A stretch of DNA of 64,000 bases from a virus (Duplodnaviria; Caudoviricetes): the IMG/VR virus record IMGVR_UViG_3300023283_000076, positions 96,001 through 160,000 of that record; one strand, given 5' to 3'. Of the stretch, positions 8,348 to 45,983 are shown piece by piece. A program made the position numbers and the translations under genes. Within the stretch, counting starts at the first letter, position 1; each line of letters opens with the position of its first letter. The notes under the pieces are model-generated. The model did not search any database. It was not told the origin of the DNA and was given only the letters and a program-made list of their open reading frames with translations.

Positions 8348-9265
8348 ATGAAGATATTATTAGAATTACAACAAATAATAAATGAATCTAAAGTTCCATC
8401 TATAACATTACAACAAGCTAAAGACAATAATTTATTTGGTCCGGTATATCATGGGACTGATGAAAGTGGTCGAGATAAAATAGCCAAGGATGGGTTTAGG
8501 GTTATAATGAATCGTAAAGATGCGAGGCATGGGTATCCAGATCAGCCTTATTATGGTAGGTTACCCCCGCCCATTCATCATTTGGGATATGGTGTATATT
8601 TTACTACTGTTAAAGCCATTGGTAAAAAATTTAATGACAATTCTACAAAGGGATTGGAACAATATTATTTAGATATTCCTAATTTAGAGGTCATTAATTT
8701 TGCTGCACCTAGGACGATGATGAAATGGTGGCAAGAAAACGGATATGATTTTGATCCTTCTGTAAAGGATCGTGAAGCTGAGAGAATTCGCGCTACTAAA
8801 AAAATGACAGATAATTTAGCATCGAAATATGATGCTGTATTATTTAAAGGAAAGACAATTCACAAGGTTTTGGATGGTAATCAAATATGTGTATTTGATC
8901 CTTCAAATAAAATATACAGGATAGATAATTCATCTATTCAAGACATAGAGGTTGGTGCTAAAGTAAGATTCTCTATGGATTTGGATGAGGCCAAAAAGTT
9001 AATTTTGAAAAATATAAATACTATCCGTCAAAAAGTTAATCCTTCGGGAATGTTATCCATGGATGATATCACGGTAAGAGAAGAGAAAGATTTCTGGAAT
9101 ATAAGTAACATATTACATGTTCCCAAGGATCCCAAGAATTGGGGAACTATTATAGATTCTAGAAGTAGTCCGAAAGGATTATATAATATATCATTTGATA
9201 TTAAATGGAAGAAGGGCGGTACCAAGTTTGGTTATCTCAAGCCGATGTTAGAATTACATAAATGA
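8348..9265 (+). CDS. ADP-ribosyltransferase-like protein (ART-PolyVal-like)
   Basis: VYHGT...GYGVYFT...YDAVLF...NQICVFDP motif series. Confidence 0.7.
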   Translation: MKILLELQQIINESKVPSITLQQAKDNNLFGPVYHGTDESGRDKIAKDGFRVIMNRKDARHGYPDQPYYGRLPPPIHHLGYGVYFTTVKAIGKKFNDNSTKGLEQYYLDIPNLEVINFAAPRTMMKWWQENGYDFDPSVKDREAERIRATKKMTDNLASKYDAVLFKGKTIHKVLDGNQICVFDPSNKIYRIDNSSIQDIEVGAKVRFSMDLDEAKKLILKNINTIRQKVNPSGMLSMDDITVREEKDFWNISNILHVPKDPKNWGTIIDSRSSPKGLYNISFDIKWKKGGTKFGYLKPMLELHK

Positions 9266-9275
9266 TATATAAGCC

Positions 9276-9992
9276 ATGGATATTAAAAAACTAATTGAAA
9301 TAATTGAACCCAGAGTTAGTGATAAAAACATATCTAAAGATTTTACATCTGACGATGATAAAAAGATACAACAATCATTACAAAAGAGAGAATTAGGTTC
9401 TGGAAATTATTCTTCGGTTGCGCCTGATCGTGGTGATTCACATATGGTAAAGAAAACCTCTTATGGTTATTTAGACTCTGACAGAGAGGATCCATATTGG
9501 TTATATGTTAATCATATTATTAAAAATAAATTATGGGAGAATCCATATTTTCCTAGAATATATAAGCAGCGTAACGTGAAAGACTCTTCTGGTCATGTTG
9601 TCAAGCGTGCTCAAATGGAAAAGCTGGAACCGGTATCCGTATTATCTGATGAAGAATTGAAAGCCTTATTTCATAAAGTTTTAGGGATTTCTGACTATGA
9701 TAAATGGGCAAAAAGAACTGATAATATTGATAAGAATGTTAAAGATGTTGTAATAAATACAATATTGGATATAACGGAAGATGTCATAAAAACGGGTTCA
9801 TATAAAACATTTGCAACGTTTGCTATTGATGAATCTGATATTGATGACAATTTTAAAAGGGCATTAAATATATTATATAACTTATCTAAAACGGATAATA
9901 TATTTATGGGGCTTGATCTTTACGAGGATAATGTTATGGTTCGACGTGGTAAATATGGTTCACAATTAGTATTCACAGATATATTTGCATGA
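9276..9992 (+). CDS. Protein-kinase-like fold protein
   Basis: LGSGNYSSV G-loop, VKK, NPYFPRIY, MEKLE, DLYEDNVM catalytic loop, TD. Confidence 0.75.
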   Translation: MDIKKLIEIIEPRVSDKNISKDFTSDDDKKIQQSLQKRELGSGNYSSVAPDRGDSHMVKKTSYGYLDSDREDPYWLYVNHIIKNKLWENPYFPRIYKQRNVKDSSGHVVKRAQMEKLEPVSVLSDEELKALFHKVLGISDYDKWAKRTDNIDKNVKDVVINTILDITEDVIKTGSYKTFATFAIDESDIDDNFKRALNILYNLSKTDNIFMGLDLYEDNVMVRRGKYGSQLVFTDIFA

Positions 9993-28381: not shown

Positions 28382-28396
28382 ATAAATGGGAGGGGA

Positions 28397-28468
28397 TGCC
28401 GTTGAAAGGATTCGAGCCTTTAACTTTTTCCTATCAAGGAACTGCTCTGCCAATTGAGCTACAACGGC
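28397..28468 (-). pseudogene. Degenerate tRNA-Ile(GAT)
   Basis: 6-nt anticodon loop TTGATA, C54, no encoded CCA. Confidence 0.7.
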
Positions 28469-28483
28469 AATTTATATTATTTA

Positions 28484-31946: not shown

Positions 31947-34019
31947 TTATACAATATATTCACTACTAATTTCCGTTATATTCATCGGTGTAATATCACC
32001 TTCGAACAATCCAAATATAGTATCTGCCTTTTCTGGATGGACTAAAGTTCCATTACGAGCCTTAACATGCATCATGAAAAGATCATATAAGCTTACTTTA
32101 TTATTGATAGAAAGCATTGCTTCAACCACATCACGTATTGATGCTGCGTTGCTATTAACATTGTTAGGTAGCTCGCCAAATGCATCTGCATGTGACATGT
32201 CTGTCCATATAATTTCTCTTGTTTTAATATCAAAAATTACCGGCATGGCGCTTGTACTATCAAAATTTAAATCAAGCTTGCATTCGACAGTTTTAGGATC
32301 GTAAACTTCATTACTGTCAGGTTTTGATCTGCTCATCCAACCAATGAAGCAAGTATCGTGTTCTGCAAAAGTATACCCGGAGAATACCATCACATTCATT
32401 GCAACATATCTTATACCAGAGCTACGAGCATTTTCGATATCGATATCAACAAATTCACTAGCACCATGTGGCGCTCTGGTTATATCACCTGAATGATACA
32501 GTCCAGACCTCGGCGATCTAATATTACCATACCAAATCTTGTCAACAACTTTAAAGTTTTTATCAAACAATGTTGCGCTCAAGTCAATATCTAGCCCTAC
32601 CCAATACAAAAACAGGCGTATAGTGTTTGTTTCTTCATCCCCAAAAGGAAAACGAGTTCCTCTCGCTGCCGAATGTGTACCATCACTAGCGCTTCTTTGC
32701 TGAGAAGGGATGGGGCATCTTTCTAATGCTGGATCAACATATACATTACCCAAGTTTTCCAGACTAGAAAATCTGTTGATTAGTGTCTTGGATATTCCAG
32801 TTACAAGAGTATTAACTACTTTTTCGGGGAGAGCATCCTGTCCACTAATTAATTCAGCCCTTTGAATGTTCCCTTTAGGAAACACTACTCTCTTCGTGGT
32901 ACTTTTGCTTCTAGTTGCAAAATGACCTTTCAACTGTAGAAGAACTTTGGTTGAAACACTATCAGCCACAGATATAAATTTGTTTGCAACAATTATCTGA
33001 TTCCTTTCGGCACCAGCCATCCTCAATAGATGATCCAATCTACGCGCAAAGTCGCCGGGACGGGTTACTAATAGCTTAGTAGCCTTAACCGGATGACCAG
33101 ACGCCAATTGCCGCTCAACTTTAGTGCTAAAAGTTTCCACACTTTCGTTTTCACGTAATGGTTTGATGGCATCATATACTTTCTTGGAGTAGTCTCCAAC
33201 ATGCAAAGAGTGCGCCAACTTAATCCACTTTCCACTATGTCTTACAAGATCTTCTCTATTGATGACAGATTCTAATCCTTTAACAAGGATTCGCCTTTCT
33301 GGTCTTTTGAAATTCTTGAATTTAGTGTTGTCTGCTAATGAAACATCACCACCGGACATATGTGTGGCAATACGCAACACATCGTTGGGGTTCTTAACCA
33401 GTTCATTGATTGGAATTCCATTTTCTACCATGTATGCACCAATAATACACAGATTTTCCTTGAACGGAATTGTTTCCGGAAATACGAGATTTCCGTAATG
33501 TTGCAAGAACCATTCAATGATTTCCTTATCTGTACTAGATACAGAATCGTTTGATGCCAATATCTTTGTAAATATTGATGCAAACTCGTCTTCTGTCGCA
33601 AGTCCCAGAGTTCTAAACTTCACATTTTCAAATGCGAATTCTCTAGGAAGTTTTTCATAATCAGGCTTCCAGTAACCGTAACTCCAATAATGCATGATAG
33701 CGTTCAAAAACAATTCCAAATCACTGGCTTCGATAACCTGACGAGGGAAATTCGGATACATTGGTTTATGAACTACATTATCGCCTTTCAACTCTTTCAA
33801 TGTTTTAACTAATACTGCTGAAAGGTCTCCTAGCATATGATCTGGAAGCTCTGAGATCACTTTTAAGAGATCTTCATCCATCATATAACCTAGGCCCATG
33901 ATATTGGCTTGAAGGGTCATGGCCTTTGCTGTAATCTGTCCCGTTGGACTCTCACTGCGCAGGTGCGCAGGTATAACTACTTTTTCTAGCTTTTTGATAG
34001 CTATTTCTGTCTTATTCAT
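31947..34019 (-). CDS. ROT/TROVE-like helical-repeat protein with C-terminal TerD domain (690 aa)
   Basis: PMYPNFPRQV, RPGDFARRLDHLLR; TerD-like DIDLSA...HSGDIT.AP.GASEFVDID; start reassigned to MNKTE after an AGGAG RBS. Confidence 0.75.
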   Translation of the reverse strand: MNKTEIAIKKLEKVVIPAHLRSESPTGQITAKAMTLQANIMGLGYMMDEDLLKVISELPDHMLGDLSAVLVKTLKELKGDNVVHKPMYPNFPRQVIEASDLELFLNAIMHYWSYGYWKPDYEKLPREFAFENVKFRTLGLATEDEFASIFTKILASNDSVSSTDKEIIEWFLQHYGNLVFPETIPFKENLCIIGAYMVENGIPINELVKNPNDVLRIATHMSGGDVSLADNTKFKNFKRPERRILVKGLESVINREDLVRHSGKWIKLAHSLHVGDYSKKVYDAIKPLRENESVETFSTKVERQLASGHPVKATKLLVTRPGDFARRLDHLLRMAGAERNQIIVANKFISVADSVSTKVLLQLKGHFATRSKSTTKRVVFPKGNIQRAELISGQDALPEKVVNTLVTGISKTLINRFSSLENLGNVYVDPALERCPIPSQQRSASDGTHSAARGTRFPFGDEETNTIRLFLYWVGLDIDLSATLFDKNFKVVDKIWYGNIRSPRSGLYHSGDITRAPHGASEFVDIDIENARSSGIRYVAMNVMVFSGYTFAEHDTCFIGWMSRSKPDSNEVYDPKTVECKLDLNFDSTSAMPVIFDIKTREIIWTDMSHADAFGELPNNVNSNAASIRDVVEAMLSINNKVSLYDLFMMHVKARNGTLVHPEKADTIFGLFEGDITPMNITEISSEYIV

Positions 34020-34104
34020 CTTCGTTCTCCTGAAGTAAAGTGGAAGAACCATTTTCTTCCGTAGCCTCAAAGCACCGGCCCATCCGGTCTTTTAGAGTAA
34101 AATT

Positions 34105-34172
34105 GTCGGTAAGTTAAAGAGCTACGTTTTTTCCGAGAGTAAAAATTAGAAGGATGCTCTTTTATAGCCGAC
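34105..34172 (-). ncRNA. Conserved RNA stem element, copy A (leader of the TROVE/TerD gene)
   Basis: GTCGG-CTATA-AAAGAGC-ATCCTTCT...GCTCTTT-AACTTA-CCGAC; homologous to copies B and C. Confidence 0.7.
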
Positions 34173-38860: not shown

Positions 38861-39169
38861 TTATGTGATAGAGTATGAAAAAAATGGAAGGAATACGGGG
38901 AATTGAACTCTTATACTGATATCCCGGAGTTTGAATCCAGTTTCCAGCCATTTTGCGATAACTTCTTCGATAGAACCGCCATGCATTTCAGCATCACACC
39001 CCCCAGCTAAATCAAGACACCGTATAACCCAACAAGTCCCATCAGTATCTAATCGCTCTTTAGGGCCCACATATATTTTACCAATTTCTTTATGCGGACG
39101 CCAGTATGCTCCACTAGGGTGGATTGTATCCCCGTCTTTTACATCTGGAATCTTACCACAAAGGGGCAT
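38861..39169 (-). CDS. Hypothetical protein
   Basis: ORF; overlaps a possible tRNA remnant. Confidence 0.5.
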   Translation of the reverse strand: MPLCGKIPDVKDGDTIHPSGAYWRPHKEIGKIYVGPKERLDTDGTCWVIRCLDLAGGCDAEMHGGSIEEVIAKWLETGFKLRDISIRVQFPVFLPFFSYSIT

Positions 39170-39271
39170 TATTTTAATTTAATATGTTGTTTATTCATTT
39201 AATTCACCTGTTGTTTATTTTCATATTCGAAAAATACGGTCCGCTGAATTTCTGGCCCTTCCGTAAATAAT

Positions 39272-39384
39272 TGTGCGCTCTAACTGCTTTAACCGCTCGC
39301 CACACCCACGAGCTTCTGGTCTTGGCCACACCACTAGCCTCAAGGATTCAGGTTTAGCGCACACTACTACAATCCTTTGTTCGA
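39272..39384 (-). ncRNA. Candidate pseudoknotted ncRNA, copy 1
   Basis: Homologous to 44587-44698 with compensatory changes in three helices. Confidence 0.75.
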
Positions 39385-39427
39385 TAAACTGCAATGGTTA
39401 CTATATCATCTTGTAACAACATTTGCA

Positions 39428-39500
39428 AGTAGTTTGTCAGGATTTGAACCTACGAATGCGGACTCCGAAGGCCCCGCTGCATTTAATTGCCCGAGGTACT
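39428..39500 (-). pseudogene. Degenerate tRNA-Arg(TCG)-like remnant
   Basis: CT-TCG-GA loop and GGTTCAAATCC T-loop; acceptor stem unpaired. Confidence 0.45.
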
Positions 39501-39759
39501 AAATCTTTCCATTCACAATCAATCTGAACATAAATTCACTTACATTCACATGTATATTTACTTTTGGTTGCATTAAAGAAAAATCTAAAAGTTCACAAAA
39601 TTCTTTAATAGATCTTTCTGCGTATTCTGTAAATGTTCCTTCCGTGCCGTCCATTTTTATATAAGTAGCTTCTATATCATCTAAATGTTTTAGACGTTCA
39701 ATAGCCCTTTTTTTAAATTGTAAAATGCTTGATTGCGATGTTAATGTTATACTATTCAT
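39499..39759 (-). CDS. Hypothetical protein
   Basis: ORF with AGGA RBS. Confidence 0.6.
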   Translation of the reverse strand: MNSITLTSQSSILQFKKRAIERLKHLDDIEATYIKMDGTEGTFTEYAERSIKEFCELLDFSLMQPKVNIHVNVSEFMFRLIVNGKI

Positions 39760-39844
39760 TTTGTATATCCTATTTTTAAGGATATTATAACATGAATATA
39801 TTTTATTTGCAATGTTTTACTGTATTGTGCCGTTTATGCTAAAT

Positions 39845-40528
39845 TCAAATCGTTTTCCACCAATCTATTGAATTATATTTTTTTGTTTGGGTTATATGAT
39901 TGTTTTTATATTTTTTATACAGTGTTTCATTAAACGTTTTAATCGGCTTCAAGTAGCCTTTTTTATGTGCTACTACTATTCTTTTTTTGCCTTGTTCTGC
40001 GGCTTGAGCCGATACTAATATGTCGTCCATATAATAATAGCCAAATTTATTTATGTCTATTATTATATTGTTAGTGTTCCAGCAACTAACGCCGTTTCCT
40101 ATAACTTCCACTTCTCTATCTTTACAGTTTTCTGCGTTAAAATGATAATATTCTTTATAATCTCTAAAATAATTTTCTATCTTTCTTTCCTTTGGAAATT
40201 TTCTTCCATGGTATGAAACAATTACGTTATCATTGTACTCGTTTAATTTTTTTATACTATAATTTACGTATCCTGCTGGATAAAGTATATCATCATCTAT
40301 ACAAAAATAATACTCATTTGGACTGGTTGCCCAAAAAACCTTTCCACTAGATTTTAGATCAGCGCCTTGATATGTGTATATTTTGTCTCTTTTGAATTCG
40401 TTTGGTATAGATTTGAAATTATTGAGATATAATCTAATATATGATACTTGATTATATATTGAGTTTAATACTTTGGTGGCACTATATAATCTTTCTGGAA
40501 CAGTTGCCATATTAGCAGATATTTTCAT
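39845..40528 (-). CDS. GT-A fold glycosyltransferase
   Basis: MKISANMATVPER, YFCIDDDILYP, MDD; start reassigned. Confidence 0.78.
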   Translation of the reverse strand: MKISANMATVPERLYSATKVLNSIYNQVSYIRLYLNNFKSIPNEFKRDKIYTYQGADLKSSGKVFWATSPNEYYFCIDDDILYPAGYVNYSIKKLNEYNDNVIVSYHGRKFPKERKIENYFRDYKEYYHFNAENCKDREVEVIGNGVSCWNTNNIIIDINKFGYYYMDDILVSAQAAEQGKKRIVVAHKKGYLKPIKTFNETLYKKYKNNHITQTKKYNSIDWWKTI

Positions 40529-40529
40529 G

Positions 40530-41147
40530 TTATTTGTATAACCCCTTTTTATGTCCAACACCTATTCCGGGTCTACCCGGATACCCCTTAATTCCTATGA
40601 CACCGCCATTATAAGGATATATTTTTTTATTTCCTTTAAATTTTTGCCAAAGCTTATAATCTAGTGATGTAGTTTGGCACAATACTTTTTTAAAATCCTC
40701 TAAAGCCTTTCCTTTCATAGCGGTTGAGCACAGGCTTGCGTGTTTTTTATTTCCCATGCATTTTTCAGATCCATCGAGATGCCTGTATACACTTGGAGCT
40801 TCTCCTACGAGATCATTGATTTGTAACCACTGGTTGCATTGTTTTAACCACCATGAGGCATATTTATCATCATCTTCAACTATGATGACACGTGTTCCTT
40901 CGATATGCTTCAAACCTTCTTTCAGGTTTCTGGCTTGTGTATTTTTGCCGGGGCTCCATAATGGTTTTGGTCTTATATGTAGGATTTCCCAATCTTTTAT
41001 GGTGGGGGTTTCCATCGATTCAGGACCATCATCTACGATAACCCATTTTACGGGACCTGTATATTCTTGAGCTTTCATATACTCTACACAATTAGAAAAT
41101 GCTTCAGGTCTTGCTCCTGTGGGAGTTATAATATTTAATATTTGCAT
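40530..41147 (-). CDS. GT2-like glycosyltransferase
   Basis: IITPTGARP..F, IVEDDDKY. Confidence 0.72.
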   Translation of the reverse strand: MQILNIITPTGARPEAFSNCVEYMKAQEYTGPVKWVIVDDGPESMETPTIKDWEILHIRPKPLWSPGKNTQARNLKEGLKHIEGTRVIIVEDDDKYASWWLKQCNQWLQINDLVGEAPSVYRHLDGSEKCMGNKKHASLCSTAMKGKALEDFKKVLCQTTSLDYKLWQKFKGNKKIYPYNGGVIGIKGYPGRPGIGVGHKKGLYK

Positions 41148-41161
41148 TATTTAAATTTCGA

Positions 41162-41797
41162 TTAGTTTGTGTCACTGTTATTACTTGAAAATAGCTTAAA
41201 TTCTGCGAAACTTGTTTCTTTGGGATTAGAGCCCTTTTCGAATGAAAATGGATTTTTCCAACTGCATATCAAATTAAATTCTTTTGCATTTTCTGAAATC
41301 CAATCAGTATATTTACGATGACGTACATGTACCGGTCCGTCTGATCTGTTATAATCAGATGAATATATTAATACTAAACGTTCCGACGCATCAAAAAGAT
41401 TTCTCATGTATCTATGAAATGTATCATCTTCAACTAAATGAAATATTACATCTAAAGACAATACGAGTGGAGATTTTAGTGTTTTAATAATTGGATCAGA
41501 GTAATGAAAAAACCTCCAGTTTTTTTTACACTCAAACATTTTATTGCAATGAGATACTGCCTCTTGAGAAACATCGATTCCTATATATTTTTTAAATTTA
41601 AATTTTGCGCATTGATTTCCATCACCTGAACCAAATTCGATGGCGTCCGATATTTTATATTTAGATGATAATTTATTTATTGTTTTCGCTTTATATTCAG
41701 CGAGTCTACCATATGACCCGGCTCCAGAATTTCCGCCCGTTTTATATCTGTGTTCCCAGTATGATGCACTTACAAAATTTTTATTTTTATTGTTCAT
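41162..41797 (-). CDS. Class I SAM-dependent methyltransferase
   Basis: YWEHRY..GGNSGAGS; IEFGSGDG; YIGIDVS; SLDVIFHL. Confidence 0.88.
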   Translation of the reverse strand: MNNKNKNFVSASYWEHRYKTGGNSGAGSYGRLAEYKAKTINKLSSKYKISDAIEFGSGDGNQCAKFKFKKYIGIDVSQEAVSHCNKMFECKKNWRFFHYSDPIIKTLKSPLVLSLDVIFHLVEDDTFHRYMRNLFDASERLVLIYSSDYNRSDGPVHVRHRKYTDWISENAKEFNLICSWKNPFSFEKGSNPKETSFAEFKLFSSNNSDTN

Positions 41798-41798
41798 T

Positions 41799-42620
41799 TT
41801 ATATTTCTATAAATTCTCTCGGTTTTATATTAACCTTTTGTGGTTTTTCGTAGTATCCATTTGTTTCTCTGTTTTTAATTTCAGTAGCATATTTAATTCG
41901 CATAGGTGACCGTGGGTTGGTTTCTTTGTTTTGCGTCAATGAATTTGAATGAATTCTTCTATAAAATAGGGGGGTGCTTATTTTACTTATCTTAAATATT
42001 TTTTCACTTCTAAAGCAAAAATCACTATCTGCTCCGCATCTCCATTCTTCAAACCCGCCCAATATATCATGGACTTCTTTTCTATGACAACCTACGCCAT
42101 CGGCGACTTTGGGTTTAATAATCCCCTGATTGGGATATGTTCCATTGTTATAATTATAATATTTTACCTTACATATGTCATAGCCCTCTTTCATCTTACT
42201 ATCGATAACTGACATCATATTTTCTTTCATGTGATCATCACTATCAAAAAATAAAATCAAAGGATAACTTGCCATTTGTAATAGAGTATTGCGTATTATA
42301 TAAGGACCATAATTATTTTTAAAATAATATATTTTTAAGTTTTTATATGAATCTTTTATTTCAGTAGCTTTTTTTAACGTTAAATCACATGCATCAATTC
42401 CCAATAATATTTCATATTTAACGTTATTATTATTATTATTGAATAGTGTTTGATTCTTAATAGAACGTAAACATTCATCTAAAAAGTCTTGCGCCTTGTA
42501 GGCTGGAATTATTATTGTATAGTTGTTGTTTGTGTTACTTTCTAAAGAGGTATTTTTATTTGCTGATTTACGACTTTTTTGATTAATGTGCAGCTTTTTT
42601 TTAAGGTCTTTGGATAACAT
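41799..42620 (-). CDS. GT2 glycosyltransferase
   Basis: IIIPAYKA..FLDECL, FFDSDD, LGGF..WRCGAD. Confidence 0.88.
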   Translation of the reverse strand: MLSKDLKKKLHINQKSRKSANKNTSLESNTNNNYTIIIPAYKAQDFLDECLRSIKNQTLFNNNNNNVKYEILLGIDACDLTLKKATEIKDSYKNLKIYYFKNNYGPYIIRNTLLQMASYPLILFFDSDDHMKENMMSVIDSKMKEGYDICKVKYYNYNNGTYPNQGIIKPKVADGVGCHRKEVHDILGGFEEWRCGADSDFCFRSEKIFKISKISTPLFYRRIHSNSLTQNKETNPRSPMRIKYATEIKNRETNGYYEKPQKVNIKPREFIEI

Positions 42621-42643
42621 TGTTAAAGTAACTTATTATGATA

Positions 42644-43354
42644 CTATTTATGATTTACTATTGAAAAATAACTAGAAAACGGTCTTTTTTCACGAGGGTA
42701 TTTTTTATTTTTTTTACGTTCATATTCTATAACATTTATACCATTTTTTTGGGTATATTTCCACAAGGTATAGTTGAAAGATAGTTGATCTCTTTTACTT
42801 GGGAGTTTCATATAATCTTTATACCATTCAGAAAATAGATTATAACAATTTACGCTTTTTCTGGATATAACCAACACACCTGTTTCATTTAATCCAGCAT
42901 TTCTGGGATAATTAATACTTTTAAGTATATTAATATGTTTATTTACAATCATCGGGGTTTCTTTTTTTAATTTTATTATTTCTCTTGCTTCATCATATAT
43001 ACAATTCCTATCAGGGTGTTGGCCAATCATTAGATCATGTTCTTTTGGATCAAAATTAAATTCTTTTATGAATTTATTTAAATCATCTGTAATTTCCATA
43101 TTACCATCTATACATATACATATATCATAAGTTTCAGGTATATATTTTGAATACTGCATTACTATAGAGTTGGCCTTCCTTTTAGGACATTTTATAAATG
43201 TATCGTCCACATGAATTGGTTTAATGTTCCATGTAGCCGATTCAATATCGCTATCGGTAACACATATGTGATCCCAGCCGGGGCTTATTGTTTTTGGTTC
43301 AATTATGTGATCATAATTTCCAGTTATATAGGTTAATACGCATCTATTGTTCAT
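42644..43354 (-). CDS. DUF616/MUCI70-like glycosyltransferase
   Basis: TYITGNYD, ICIDGN, HPDRNCIYDEA, RDQLSFNY. Confidence 0.8.
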   Translation of the reverse strand: MNNRCVLTYITGNYDHIIEPKTISPGWDHICVTDSDIESATWNIKPIHVDDTFIKCPKRKANSIVMQYSKYIPETYDICICIDGNMEITDDLNKFIKEFNFDPKEHDLMIGQHPDRNCIYDEAREIIKLKKETPMIVNKHINILKSINYPRNAGLNETGVLVISRKSVNCYNLFSEWYKDYMKLPSKRDQLSFNYTLWKYTQKNGINVIEYERKKNKKYPREKRPFSSYFSIVNHK

Positions 43355-43514
43355 TAAATTTTTTTTGTTTTTTATTTATTTCCTCTATTTCTTCTAAACA
43401 TAGACCACAACATGTGGCTGCACCTGTTTGTATTATGACGCTTAAAATATCTCCATGGTGAAGGTGCTGTTTTATTTCATCCTCTGTTATTGCGTTGCAA
43501 ACACATATATACAT
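43344..43514 (-). CDS. bfd: Bacterioferritin-associated ferredoxin-like [2Fe-2S] protein (56 aa, absent from ORF track)
   Basis: MYICVCNAITEDEIK...GAATCCGLC; starts 2 nt after the epimerase stop and overlaps the next gene. Confidence 0.85.
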   Translation of the reverse strand: MYICVCNAITEDEIKQHLHHGDILSVIIQTGAATCCGLCLEEIEEINKKQKKFNEQ

Positions 43515-43515
43515 T

Positions 43516-44478
43516 TTAAGTATAATATCCTTTATACCATTTTATAAAATTATGTATTCCAGCTTCTATATCTACTTTTGGGCTATGGTTTATGATATTT
43601 TTTATTTTTGATAGATTCGCATGAGTTATGCGCATTTCCTCTATATTCTCTGGCAATATTTTTATATTAGCTCGCTTGTTTAGATTTTGTTCTATAAGTT
43701 TAATAACATCCATTAGATAAATTGGAGTTCCATTAGAAATATTATATATTTCATATGGTATGGAACCTTCTGGTATTTTGGTTAATATTTGACATATTAT
43801 ATTAACTGCATCATCAATGTATGTGAAATCTCTATATTGATTTCCATTATTATACACTTTTATTTGTTTATCAGATAGAATACTTTTAGTAAATTTATGC
43901 ATTGCCAAATCCGGGCGCAACCATGGTCCATATATAGAAAATAGGCGTAACCCAGTAGTAGGGATATCATACATATTACTATAAACATGTGCCATCAATT
44001 CATTAGATTTTTTTGTCGCCCCATATATTGATATTTGTTTATCCGTGTTGTCTTCTTCATGGAATGGTGGAGTATTATTGTTGTATACCGCACTGGAAGA
44101 AGCATACACTAAATGTTTTACTTCATATTCTTTCATTACGTCTAATATGTTCATAAATCCTGAAATATTGTTGTCAATTACTTCTTCAGGATGCTTCGTA
44201 GAATATCTAACACCTGCTTGTGCCGCTAAATGTACGATATAGTCTATTGAATTTTTTTCAAATATTTTTTTGAGGTCTTGGGTATTTCTTATATCAATTT
44301 TTTTAAAAATAAAATTTGAATTTAAGCTAATTATATCTTTTACTCTATCGCGTTTAAGATTTTGGTCATAATAAGAATTTAAATTATCTATCCCTATTAC
44401 GTTAATATTTTTACGTAGTAATGCCTTACATAATGAATGCCCGACGAATCCTGCAACACCTGTTATTAACGTATACAT
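43516..44478 (-). CDS. NAD-dependent epimerase (UDP-glucuronate 4-epimerase-like)
   Basis: GVAGFVG, HLAAQAGVRYS, YGATKKSNE, RDFTYIDD. Confidence 0.92.
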   Translation of the reverse strand: MYTLITGVAGFVGHSLCKALLRKNINVIGIDNLNSYYDQNLKRDRVKDIISLNSNFIFKKIDIRNTQDLKKIFEKNSIDYIVHLAAQAGVRYSTKHPEEVIDNNISGFMNILDVMKEYEVKHLVYASSSAVYNNNTPPFHEEDNTDKQISIYGATKKSNELMAHVYSNMYDIPTTGLRLFSIYGPWLRPDLAMHKFTKSILSDKQIKVYNNGNQYRDFTYIDDAVNIICQILTKIPEGSIPYEIYNISNGTPIYLMDVIKLIEQNLNKRANIKILPENIEEMRITHANLSKIKNIINHSPKVDIEAGIHNFIKWYKGYYT

Positions 44479-44586
44479 ATATACCCATACACCTTTTTTA
44501 AAATTATAGCGTATCTACTATACGAGGTTAAAGATATTTATGTCAAGGAAAACATGATATCCTTTTATTATTTGTAACAAAAACAT

Positions 44587-44698
44587 ATGCGTCCTAACTG
44601 CTTTAACCGCTCTCCACACCAAAGAGCTTCGGGTCTTGGCCACACCACTAGCCTCAAGGGTTCAGGTTTGACGCATCCTACTACAACCCTTTGTTCGA
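44587..44698 (-). ncRNA. Candidate pseudoknotted ncRNA, copy 2
   Basis: See copy 1. Confidence 0.75.
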
Positions 44699-44839
44699 AA
44701 AATCTTTTTTATTTATAATAACATCTTTAAAGGTGAAATGCGAACAATATATTATTATATGTCTGATTTATTGGAGATTTATATTTTCAATTTTTAATTT
44801 TTATAAATATATACGAAATACTTACACGGAGTAATAGTT

Positions 44840-45370
44840 ATGAAAAAATATATATTTACAATATTGGCTGGATTATTAATATCATCATCTGTCGTTTCTC
44901 AAGATGTCTCAGATGCGGGAATATGGAGTTCATCTGATGATAGTTTTCAAGGATTTAATTTTGTTCCTGTAGGTGAAACCGTTTTCGCAAATGAATCTCT
45001 TATTGTGTTTTGGTACACATATGATGAAAGCGGTAATCAGGTTTGGTTTATAAGTGATAATGTTGAAGCAAATCCCTCGGGCAACTATCAACGAGTCGAC
45101 ATATTCAACCCTATTTGTTCATTTAGAGTTCTTTCTGATGAATGTTCAGCAGGGGATCCTGTCGGGGTTATTGATATTTCTAAAGAATTAACTGGTACAT
45201 TTGATGTGCGTTTCGCAATAGATGAAAGCGTCGGTGATTTTAGTGCTGAATGTGACCCTAATGTCCTAGATCCTAGAGTAAGCCCAGCACCGCCTGAATT
45301 ACCCGAAGAGTTTGAATGTCAGGGAGAACTTACTTTAGAACGCATAACACCGAAAGCTGTTTTAGATTAA
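44840..45370 (+). CDS. Late secreted protein with signal peptide
   Basis: TATAAATA at 44802; Sec-type signal; G.W...QG...FWYTYD..GNQ.W beta-domain; CxC-type cysteine pairs. Confidence 0.8.
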   Translation: MKKYIFTILAGLLISSSVVSQDVSDAGIWSSSDDSFQGFNFVPVGETVFANESLIVFWYTYDESGNQVWFISDNVEANPSGNYQRVDIFNPICSFRVLSDECSAGDPVGVIDISKELTGTFDVRFAIDESVGDFSAECDPNVLDPRVSPAPPELPEEFECQGELTLERITPKAVLD

Positions 45371-45629: not shown

Positions 45630-45704
45630 TTCTTGGAAAGTTGAAAAGCTGTTTAGTTGAGTAAAAGTCAAATGTATAGAAGGATGCTTTTCTATGGCCA
45701 AGAA
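45630..45704 (-). ncRNA. Conserved RNA stem element, copy B
   Basis: TTCTTGG-CCATA-GAAAAGC-ATCCTTCT...TTTTACTC...GCTTTTC-AACTTT-CCAAGAA. Confidence 0.72.
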
Positions 45705-45821: not shown

Positions 45822-45983
45822 ACAGGTAATTTAAAAAGCTTTTTAAATACCGCTGCTCTACCAATTGAGCTACCAGCGAACCAAAAAATTCATTATACAT
45901 AAACTCTTTGGTTCGCTGGGCAGGACTCGAACCTGCAACCCACGGTTCCCATATTATTAGAAGGATGCCTTTTTATGGCCTGT
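45822..45983 (-). ncRNA. Conserved RNA stem element, copy C, enclosing a circularly permuted tRNA module (YrlA-like)
   Basis: T-arm half precedes D-arm half; acceptor TCGCTGG/CCAGCGA closed by an extended hairpin; anticodon stem continues into the A/B/C stem. Confidence 0.8.

Follow-up and report, generated by a model that had tools for sequence, protein, structure and literature searches.

A two-copy structured RNA under selection at the edges of a glycosylation island in an XacN1-related jumbo phage

The window analysed here, a stretch of 64,000 nucleotides from an uncultured jumbo phage, carries two copies of an element that represents a genuine, previously undescribed structured RNA family of a narrow clade of XacN1-related jumbo phages. 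Its RNA fold is under selection, because the two copies are separated by five compensatory pairs and no broken pair, the changes in a close relative are all compatible with wobble pairing or fall in unpaired positions, and the closing helix has covaried in a distant member. We think that the element is a discrete, stable small RNA or the scaffold of a ribonucleoprotein, a reading to which we assign a probability of about 0.45, slightly short of even odds.

Results

Both copies lie on the minus strand (Table 1). Their aligned 113-nt cores (39272-39384 for copy 1 and 44586-44698 for copy 2) agree at 100 of 113 positions and differ at 13, and their flanks are unrelated. As a direct repeat (D1) the copies span 39265-39388 and 44579-44702, and there are two of them in the 270-kb genome. 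The conserved block starts at UUUNUCGAA and ends directly after the closing helix P1; the GC content of the element is 52%, as against 25-40% in the flanks.

P1, which is 7-11 bp long across members, leads into an invariant 4x4 internal loop in which AAAC stands opposite UUAG, beyond which come an invariant 3-bp helix, CUG/CAG, and a three-way junction with two hairpins, each bearing a GGUGU loop. A 7-bp pseudoknot joins the 5′ leader to a junction strand in the two closely related phages, and in the close copies the pseudoknot (10-16/39-45) and P1 (25-31/108-114) are interleaved. Candidate functions considered for the loops were rejected: a Shine-Dalgarno mimic, since this phage uses AAGGAG as its Shine-Dalgarno sequence and shows no enrichment of GGUGU ahead of starts, and a UGGU loop binding the 3′-CCA of tRNA, which is missing from some loops.

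Ten of the 13 differences between the copies make up the five compensatory pairs, all of them as the first-pass annotation had claimed. Three are in P1 (GUGCGCU/AGCGCAC in copy 1, AUGCGUC/GACGCAU in copy 2), one is in a hairpin (GCUCG/CGAGC and GCUCU/AGAGC, respectively) and one in the 5′ pseudoknot (AAGGAUU/AAUCCUU and AAGGGUU/AACCCUU). When 13 random substitutions were placed on a fixed 32-pair structure, at least five compensatory pairs arose in none of 1,000,000 trials (simulated chance <1e-6), and no pair was broken in 0.26% of trials. In a looser simulation, in which 84 candidate helices offered 370 possible pairs, at least five arose in 40 of 200,000 trials. The pseudoknot is supported by one double change, and P2, P3 and P4 are predicted helices in which the four known sequences show no variation. 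The segments that the same annotation had called invariant linkers are indeed invariant between the copies and recur nowhere else in the window or in the 270-kb genome, but describing them as mere linkers does not hold, since helices P2, P3 and P4 lie inside them.

Table 1. Features of the element and its surroundings (positions in the window)
Feature	Position	Strand	Remarks
Copy 1 of the RNA	39272..39386	minus	model R1, 151 bits
Copy 1, 5′ leader and pseudoknot strand AAGGAUU	39377-39371	minus	
Copy 1, P1	39362-39356 with 39279-39273	minus	
Copy 1, junction AAAC	39355-39352	minus	
Copy 1, P2	CUG 39351-39349 with CAG 39286-39284	minus	
Copy 1, pseudoknot strand AAUCCUU	39348-39342	minus	
Copy 1, hairpin P3	39339-39324	minus	
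Copy 1, bulged hairpin P4/P5	39321-39291	minus	
Copy 1, UUAG	39283-39280	minus	
A/U-rich tail AAUUAUUUA directly past copy 1 P1	39264..39272	minus	identical in L269; UUUUU here in L273
Promoter-like TTGCAA-17-TATAGT, TG before it	39400..39428	minus	9/12; ends 14 nt upstream of copy 1 conserved block
Gene module downstream of copy 1	38861..39197	minus	mini-ORF and ORF102
Copy 2 of the RNA	44586..44700	minus	model R1, 148 bits; architecture as copy 1
Copy 2, pseudoknot	44691-44685 with 44662-44656	minus	
Copy 2, P1	44676-44670 with 44593-44587	minus	
Tail AUGUUUUUGUUAC past copy 2 P1	44573..44585	minus	U5 tract 3 nt after helix
Promoter-like TTCGCA-18-TATTAT, TG before it	44715..44744	minus	9/12; ends ~15 nt upstream of copy 2
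Near-consensus promoter-like TTGACA-18-TATAGT between copy 2 and epimerase gene	44517..44546	minus	11/12
Glycosylation island between the copies	39499..44478	minus	
NAD-dependent epimerase/dehydratase	43516-44478	minus	in the glycosylation island

Relatives and distribution

Extra members were sought with neighbouring proteins as anchors, and this collection of homologues, a check proposed in the first-pass annotation, yielded two: an orthologue, L269, and a distant member, L273. Four distinct sequences, three of them close, are now known, all from three related phages (the source phage, L269 and L273). The L269 element (9213-9329) is 95% identical to copy 1, compared with about 81% for the adjoining DNA, and every change between the two is wobble-compatible or unpaired. 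In L273, six of the seven P1 pairs are altered on both sides, with the junction strands AAAC-CUG ... CAG-UUAG identical; this member, too, has two hairpins capped by GGUGU loops, its tail is U5, and the minimum-energy fold has the same architecture (z = -4.9). A possible 6-bp equivalent of the pseudoknot could be due to chance, and the L273 junction strand AAGACUU has two potential partners, the leader and a strand further downstream, so that alternative folds are possible. Because MAFFT misaligned the 3′ half of L273, we used a CM-based alignment, A4, in which its inner hairpins are left as insertions.

Wider searches returned no further member. Blastn of the element against 50,697 GenBank phages gave chance matches of 26-32 nt only, and motif scans of IMG/VR (24-mer, 16-mer, 15-mer, stem-degenerate and three-anchor junction patterns, with model R1 run on the loci that they picked out) gave chance or coding matches only. 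One metagenome pattern scan produced 31 loci and zero CM matches, and one pattern scan of GTDB genomes a single match, inside coding sequence. The whole XacN1, Xoo-sp13, CM1, RsoM2USA and LR745208 records contained no match to model R1 or the junction pattern; three IMG/VR fragments from an 87%-related phage do not span the region. Loci anchored on TerD (L272, L274-L276 and L291-L295) added no member, the junction motif was found neither in 80 IMG/VR TerD loci nor in 50 other TerD-carrying IMG/VR records (7 Mb in total; 12 records reach a completeness of 90% or more), and ORF102, used as an anchor, had no homologues and led back to the same phage.

The earlier failure to recognise a known family is borne out: an Rfam 15 gathering scan of the window reported tRNAs only, neither copy had a true match at E<=10, and at that threshold both copies and L273 drew only chance matches of snoRNA/miRNA type, far below the family thresholds. 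The proposal of a functional non-coding RNA outside known families is therefore supported by the compensatory changes, the 52% GC content, conservation of 95% as against about 81% in adjoining DNA, P1 covariation in L273 and the lack of an Rfam match. The more specific roles proposed in the first-pass annotation, those of a ribozyme, a processing element or a protein sponge, are candidates only.

Genomic setting

Besides the epimerase gene, the island between the copies comprises ORF56, a TOD1/MUCI70-like glycosyltransferase, a GT2, a methyltransferase, a second GT2, a 238-aa ORF and ORF86. In all three phages in which the head of the glycosylation cassette is visible, its 5′ end bears a copy of the element on the same strand: copy 2 lies upstream of the epimerase gene, the L269 copy upstream of ORF89, tRNA-Ser and glycosyltransferases, and the L273 copy upstream of ORF240 through GT61. 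Copy 1 precedes ORF102, which is unrelated to sugars. The mini-ORF of this module (9 codons, Shine-Dalgarno AGGUGA) ends in UAAUG, overlapping the ORF102 ATG, and in L269 the same mini-ORF start opens a single 89-aa ORF. A co-oriented ORF with a Shine-Dalgarno sequence follows every copy at 50-110 nt. The element sits among tRNA genes and other small RNAs of the same strand, and over 250 nt separate it from the nearest upstream tRNAs. Y-like RNAs and 48 tRNAs are encoded in the genome as a whole.

A U-rich tail follows P1 in all four sequences, with U5 in copy 2 and L273 and poor U tracts in copy 1 and L269; the copy 1 tail is possibly a 3′ end or a weak terminator tract. A hairpin downstream of copy 1 was rejected as a conserved terminator, its pairs being broken in L269. 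The 9/12 promoter-like matches upstream of the two copies are not above shuffle expectation for an AT-rich region, and neither L269 nor L273 had an equivalent scoring site ahead of the element.

When L269 was compared with the window by blastn, homology broke at 39388 and at 44705/44594, the edges of the element, and the module formed by the element and ORF102 lies on opposite sides of the island in the source phage and in L269. The breakpoints are consistent with the suggestion that the copies served as recombination sites; they demonstrate mosaicism, but not that the element caused it. Judged by its 95% identity, copy 1 is the orthologue of the L269 element and copy 2 a more diverged paralogue or xenologue, probably brought in by mosaic recombination together with the epimerase end of the island.

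Discussion

We propose that the element gives rise to a discrete and stable small RNA of about 115-130 nt; the results above show the fold, the selection on it, where the element occurs and where it sits in the genome, and from the sequence we infer its transcription, its ends and the kind of partner it may have. It would be transcribed from its own weak promoter, or within co-oriented transcripts of tRNAs and small ORFs, and P1 with the U-rich tail would mark the point where it ends or is trimmed. As a scaffold, it may use the internal loop and the two GGUGU loops to contact a complementary RNA or a protein, perhaps a dimeric one. The element resembles a stable RNA because of its 52% GC content, its tRNA and small-RNA neighbours on the same strand and the U-rich tails after P1, and it resembles a discrete unit because the conserved block has unrelated flanks and its edges are also where homology to L269 breaks off. 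Also pointing to a discrete RNA are the near-consensus promoter that separates copy 2 from the epimerase gene and the position of copy 1 before a gene that is not concerned with sugars. The position at the cassette head, together with a co-oriented ORF within 50-110 nt, fits a cis-acting leader equally well.

Such a leader is the main rival to a discrete small RNA, although we regard it as somewhat doubtful. It would be an attenuator or riboswitch, with P1 and the U tract as terminator and the three-way-junction domain as the binding site for a ligand or protein, or a processive antitermination RNA like put or EAR, which would carry RNA polymerase through the long sugar operon. The same-strand copy that opens the glycosylation cassette at its 5′ end in three of three phages is what such a leader would predict, as are the U5 after P1 in L273 and copy 2, the alternative pairing of AAGACUU in L273 and the ORFs with Shine-Dalgarno sequences 50-110 nt downstream. 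However, an 11/12 sigma-70-like promoter intervenes between copy 2 and the epimerase gene, copy 1 heads ORF102 and no sugar genes, and in copy 1 and L269 the tail is a poor U tract. The conserved block stops at P1, beyond which we found no conserved antiterminator, expression platform or alternative hairpin, and no Rfam riboswitch or EAR matched at E<=10. A more specific proposal, that the element represents a novel class of regulatory RNA and gates the glycosylation cassette, is unlikely in our view. Here a three-way-junction aptamer whose P1 doubles as the intrinsic-terminator stem would sense a metabolite such as a nucleotide sugar, or else a protein of the phage or its host, and so decide whether transcription runs on into the sugar-modification genes, with the 5′ pseudoknot tuning the switch.

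The surrounding small RNAs suggest other roles. The element might be an accessory RNA of the neighbouring Y-RNA-like system, which consists of a 701-aa TerD-like protein and 'handle' RNAs, serving for instance as its second ligand or as a regulator of that particle. In three of three phages the distance to the TerD-like gene is 5-10 kb and handle RNAs lie around the element, and the element's leader AAGGAU could pair with AUCCUU of the handle motif. This role is improbable: the element has no handle motif, and its absence from the 50 other TerD-carrying records and the 80 TerD loci, as well as from L274, L275 and L291-L295, means that it does not co-vary with the TerD-like protein. We consider quite improbable a self-cleaving ribozyme or processing signal that would cut polycistronic transcripts of tRNAs and small ORFs in the manner of theta (HDV-like) ribozymes, which are known beside phage tRNAs (PMC10879173). 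The location in tRNA arrays and the interleaving of pseudoknot and P1 (A-B-A′-[hairpins]-B′), a nested double-pseudoknot topology, recall HDV-like ribozymes, but only 7 nt (AAACCUG) are available where the HDV P3/L3 hairpin must lie, no tRNA lies directly upstream of the element, the pseudoknot has no clear counterpart in L273 and no Rfam ribozyme family matched at E<=10. Nor is there a hammerhead core (CUGANGA/GAAA): at the junction the sequences have CUGAAUC, CUGAACC or CUGAAAA, and core positions 8-9 are never GA. Strongly disfavoured, finally, is the idea that no RNA fold is selected at all and that the element is merely a recombination or cassette-boundary repeat of the PeSL kind, or a small coding gene. 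Synteny does break at the edges of the element, and the element and ORF102 do lie on opposite sides of the island in two phages; yet a repeat acting at the DNA level would not be expected to show five compensatory pairs and zero disrupted ones, and each genome has only two copies. As for coding, the first-pass statement that no ORF covers the element is not strictly true, for a 57-aa ORF starting with TTG (39221-39394) overlaps copy 1, and its frame is open in the three close copies. A small protein-coding gene was nevertheless rejected, since nearly all substitutions in that frame are non-synonymous and the L273 element has stops in all six frames.

Jumbo phages contain many orphan non-coding regions. 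To our knowledge, very few non-tRNA structured RNAs encoded by phages have a defined fold, and fewer still a function. The element offers unusually clean evidence of a selected fold from very few sequences, its position at the head of glycosylation cassettes is reproducible, and it is a documented case of a structured RNA at the joints where a mosaic island has recombined. Its invariant internal loop and twin GGUGU loops look like binding surfaces. If the element is a trans-acting RNA or a component of a ribonucleoprotein, it would be a new player in phage-host RNA biology; a role as a cis-regulator would make it a rare example of phage glycosylation genes controlled by RNA.

Comparison with known systems

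The T4 RNAs rnaC and rnaD (species 1 and 2) are similar in being stable, non-coding RNAs of 119-139 nt, encoded on the tRNA strand within the tRNA cluster of a large myovirus. The element shows no likeness to either in sequence or fold, and homology was rejected on that basis: rnaC has a tRNA-like T arm, neither RNA has the AAAC/UUAG junction or GGUGU loops, and the T4 RNAs directly abut tRNA genes.

PeSL motifs, the composite promoter-terminator motifs of T4-like phages, are short conserved non-coding modules that border variable gene cassettes (PMC2839356, PMC4122927). Homology between related phages breaks at these motifs, where cassettes are exchanged, and the same is seen at our element. 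PeSLs, however, consist of a small stem-loop and a promoter and occur in many copies next to small ORFs, whereas the element is a 113-nt multi-helix, pseudoknotted fold with compensatory selection and two copies; the early promoter of PeSLs is conserved, unlike the promoter part of the element.

With HDV-like and theta ribozymes the element shares the phage tRNA region and, in its close copies, an apparent interleaving of helices, but it lacks a P3/L3 hairpin, offers no position for the catalytic C of J4/2 and is not immediately 3′ of a tRNA. Handle RNAs of the Y RNA/YrlA type share its neighbourhood, its strand and a closing helix with a conserved internal loop resembling a protein handle. 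Their motif, ATAAAAAGRGCATCCTTCTAAT, occurs at about 34145, 45675 and 45956; membership of the element in this three-copy family was rejected, since ATAAAAAGRGCATCCTTCTAAT is absent from it and its distribution is not tied to the TerD-like gene of about 690 aa.

The processive antitermination RNAs EAR (eps-associated RNA) and put of phage HK022 are about 70-120 nt long. EAR contains a pseudoknot and resides in polysaccharide (glycosyltransferase) operons, and putL and putR are two diverged copies within one phage. The element differs from both in ending in a helix and a U tract, an arrangement that is terminator-like rather than antiterminator-like.

Structure of the duplicated RNA

A repeat search found a single long direct repeat in the window, within which the two copies of the element align on the minus strand without a gap over ~113 nt between unrelated surrounding sequences. 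The conserved block opens with UUUNUCGAAC and closes 2-3 bases past the closing helix, and its G+C content is 51-52%, versus 25-40% for the 300 nt on its flanks. Copy 1 and copy 2 differ at 13 positions of the 113-nt core, 10 of which fall, as both partners, in five base pairs. P1, the closing helix, holds three of these (columns 25-114, 30-109 and 31-108 of alignment A2); the distal hairpin has one (78-88), as does the pseudoknot of the leader AAGGAUU with the internal strand AAUCCUU (14-41). None of the 32 proposed pairs is broken by a substitution. When 13 random substitutions were placed on copy 1, with the share of transitions kept equal, five compensatory pairs never arose in 1,000,000 trials and all pairs stayed intact in only 0.26%; a more generous null, counting any of 370 pairs in 84 possible helices, gave at least five in just 40 of 200,000 trials. 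Because five compensatory pairs are so rare under both nulls, the duplicated RNA with compensatory changes reported in the first-pass annotation is confirmed in every detail. Selection on the fold is strongly supported.

Four sequences define the common anatomy: the two copies, an orthologue on a related-phage contig (L269) and a distant homologue on another contig (L273). All have P1 (7-11 bp), a 4x4 internal loop AAAC/UUAG, the inner helix P2 (CUG/CAG) and a three-way junction bearing two hairpins with RGGUGUR loops (GUGGUGUGG and GGGUGUGG in this genome, AAGGUGUAG and UGGGUGUUA in L273); a U-rich tail, AAUUAUUUA, AUGUUUUUG or UUUUUAAUU, follows P1. The 7-bp pseudoknot between leader and junction occurs in the three close sequences and is supported by one double change. 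A possible equivalent in L273 is a 6-bp pairing of leader and junction (UAAGUU with GACUUG), but the same junction strand also makes a 7-bp local stem there. The linkers first described as invariant are so, but they are not mere linkers, since P2, P3 and P4 lie inside them; as these helices do not vary among the sequences, covariation says nothing about them.

Homologues and family assignment

With Rfam 15, cmscan at the gathering score returned only tRNAs from the window, and at E<=10 either copy, and likewise the L273 homologue, gave only sub-threshold snoRNA and miRNA noise; no known family fits the RNA. Direct nucleotide searches retrieved no relatives, whether in GenBank phages, in five pattern scans of IMG/VR, in one metagenome scan or in one GTDB genome scan; reads of the source study revealed a related strain whose copy differs slightly and has other surroundings. 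Homologues were reached through two protein anchors, a TOD1-like enzyme and a TerD-like protein. The nearest homologue of the former sits on L269, a 32.9-kb JGI contig whose TerD-like protein is 90% identical to that of this genome and which carries one copy of the element (141 bits with R1, our covariance model). This copy has six core differences from copy 1, three of which exchange a pair and a wobble (U-A to U-G, C-G to U-G, U-G to U-A), the rest being unpaired. The element is 95% identical between L269 and copy 1 and the enclosing 442-nt block 84%, so that the adjoining DNA is about 81% identical.

On L273, a 242-kb JGI contig with a TerD-like protein of 59% identity, R1 matched at 18.6 bits (E 0.02, filters off). 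Six of the seven aligned pairs of its P1, AGAGAAUAGCC/GGCUAUUCU, are changed and all still pair, the strands AAAC-CUG-AA and CAG-UUAG are letter-identical to the copies here, and each of two inner hairpins has a GGUGU loop; the minimum-energy fold recovers P1 and P2, the internal loop that separates them and both hairpins (z = -4.9 versus shuffles). In 3 Mb of fetched DNA, a descriptor of both junction strands and at least six P1 pairs matched nothing beyond L273 and the copies already known; with exact junction strands and nine P1 pairs, we estimate ~1e-4 chance matches in that much sequence. No further member was found in other TerD-anchored contigs, in XacN1-like genomes, in 50 whole TerD-carrying IMG/VR records (7 Mb; 12 at least 90% complete) or in 80 TerD-like loci from IMG/VR. 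The family is real, structured, apparently undescribed and narrow in distribution, and its presence is not tied to that of the TerD-like protein.

The handle RNAs are a separate Y-like small-RNA family near the TerD-like gene. Their motif, ATAAAAAGRGCATCCTTCTAAT, is absent from the element, which was rejected as a member; the AUCCUU core of the motif is complementary to the element leader AAGGAU. Around the TerD-like gene in more distant phages (contigs L274, L275 and L291), RNA ligase (PF09414), NADAR, ART-PolyVal, Acb2/Tad1-like and DUF4326 genes recur, which suggests an RNA-repair and anti-defence neighbourhood.

Genomic setting

The source record (270.6 kb, 79% complete by CheckV, 33% G+C) holds 48 tRNA genes, 17 of them in the window, and just these two copies of the element. 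It encodes a portal, a large terminase and a 978-aa head-tail adaptor, whose 43% identity to the adaptors of Xanthomonas phages XacN1 and Xoo-sp13 places the genome, by sequence, among XacN1-like jumbo myoviruses, as a distant member. The genome also has, outside the window, tRNA arrays (Leu-Leu-Leu, Tyr-Pro-Arg, Val-Thr, Met, Lys and others) repeated in inverted orientation, which indicates a large diverged inverted duplication. One tRNA in the window has an undetermined two-base "anticodon" (ga) according to ARAGORN and is a normal tRNA (58 bits) according to Rfam; its anticodon loop may be odd.

Around the element the minus strand is the coding strand, with many small ORFs. The island between the copies encodes an NAD-dependent epimerase/dehydratase, a TOD1/MUCI70-like glycosyltransferase, two GT2 glycosyltransferases, a methyltransferase and two ORFs without matches. 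A tRNA-like remnant lies immediately upstream of copy 1. It consists of a GC-rich, UUCG-looped hairpin and, after it, a T-arm-like GUAGGUUCAAAUCCUGA; ARAGORN and Rfam both report no tRNA at this site, where a class-II tRNA may have decayed to its 3' half. Copy 1 is followed by a nine-codon mini-ORF (MNKQHIKLK) with a good SD, whose terminal UAAUG overlaps the start codon ATG of ORF102; in L269, one 89-aa ORF runs from the same start. Either the gene is frameshifted or split here, or the mini-ORF and ORF102 are a pair coupled in translation.

Coordinates of the element and neighbouring features (window positions unless a contig or the genome is named)
Feature	Position	Strand	Remark
Element copy 1	39272-39384	-	
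Element copy 2	44586-44698	-	
Direct repeat	39265-39388; 44579-44702		
Element, L269	9213-9329		
R1 match, L273	105-228		
ORF102	38861-39169	-	
Mini-ORF	39168-39197	-	
89-aa ORF, L269	9401-9670		
tRNA-like remnant	39430-39500	-	
ORF176	44840-45370	+	176 aa
TerD-like gene	31947-34052		701 aa
Handle RNAs	about 34105-34172, 45640-45700, 45822-45983	-	one with tRNA-like insert
Handle motif	~34145, 45675, 45956		three copies
tRNA, anticodon (ga)	28394-28469	-	
tRNA-His and tRNA-Ser(UGA), L269	8884-8959, 9680-9770		flank its element
Inverted tRNA arrays, genome	16-38 kb; 56-82 kb	-; +	
L269 match, block A	46028-45398		
L269 match, element and ORF102-like gene	39388-38948		
L269 match, island	43517-39508		
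Ends of L269 homology at element edges	39388; 44705 and 44594		

Mosaicism at the cassette

In the REARRANGEMENT comparison (blastn against the window), L269 runs from block A to the element with an ORF102-like gene, then tRNA-Ser, the island, and sequence matching 38911 onwards. This genome runs from block A through ORF176, copy 2, a near-consensus promoter with the epimerase gene, and the island, to copy 1 with ORF102 and again 38911 onwards. Homology stops exactly at the element edges, identity to L269 falls to 68% at the TOD1 end of the island, versus 79% for the rest, and copy 2 is equidistant from copy 1 and the L269 copy. The simplest reading of this layout is mosaic recombination, in which a more distant relative, with the element at the head of its cassette, would have donated the segment from ORF176 through copy 2 and the epimerase to TOD1. 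The element heads the cassette in L273, and in each of the three phages a copy marks the 5' end of a co-oriented glycosylation cassette; this genomic position is suggestive. ORF176, the sole plus-strand ORF nearby, begins with a signal-peptide-like sequence and matches no Pfam family; because it is missing from L269, we count it as part of the presumably imported segment. The tRNA genes flanking the L269 element are missing at the matching place here, and tRNA content therefore turns over at the same joints.

Discussion

Two readings of the element fit the data. The one we prefer, to which we give a probability of about 0.45, is that it acts as a discrete small RNA. Its conserved unit ends exactly at P1 and the tail, its G+C content is high, and its neighbours include tRNAs and other small RNAs; an 11-of-12 promoter-like site between copy 2 and the epimerase gene, and a gene unrelated to sugars after copy 1, point the same way. 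The invariant internal loop and twin GGUGU loops would then be the putative sites of contact with a partner, protein or RNA. Both copies are preceded by promoter-like sites, which are weak, and no equivalent was scored upstream of the element in L269 or L273, so the RNA may share a transcript with the tRNA array and then be processed. The constant place at the head of a sugar cassette could instead reflect a cis-acting leader, whose ending of helix and U-tract could terminate transcription and for which L273 offers possible alternative pairings; we regard this as possible but less likely.

The other explanations seem to us improbable. A role as accessory RNA in the Y-like system is unlikely, and one as ribozyme or processing element slightly more so, the HDV P3/L3 and the hammerhead core both being absent. 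Least credible is a mere repeat or small ORF: the first-pass annotation saw no ORF over the element, and although a 57-aa TTG ORF does overlap copy 1, in a frame open in the three close copies, coding is not supported by the substitutions, almost all of which are non-synonymous in that frame, and the L273 homologue has stops in all six frames.

As a discrete small RNA, the element would recall T4 rnaC and rnaD, which share its tRNA and small-RNA setting without homology to it. Promoter-terminator (PeSL) cassettes are gene-exchange sites of T4-like phages (PMC4122927). Like them, the element sits at probable cassette-exchange joints; unlike them, it has a large RNA fold under selection and occurs in two copies only.
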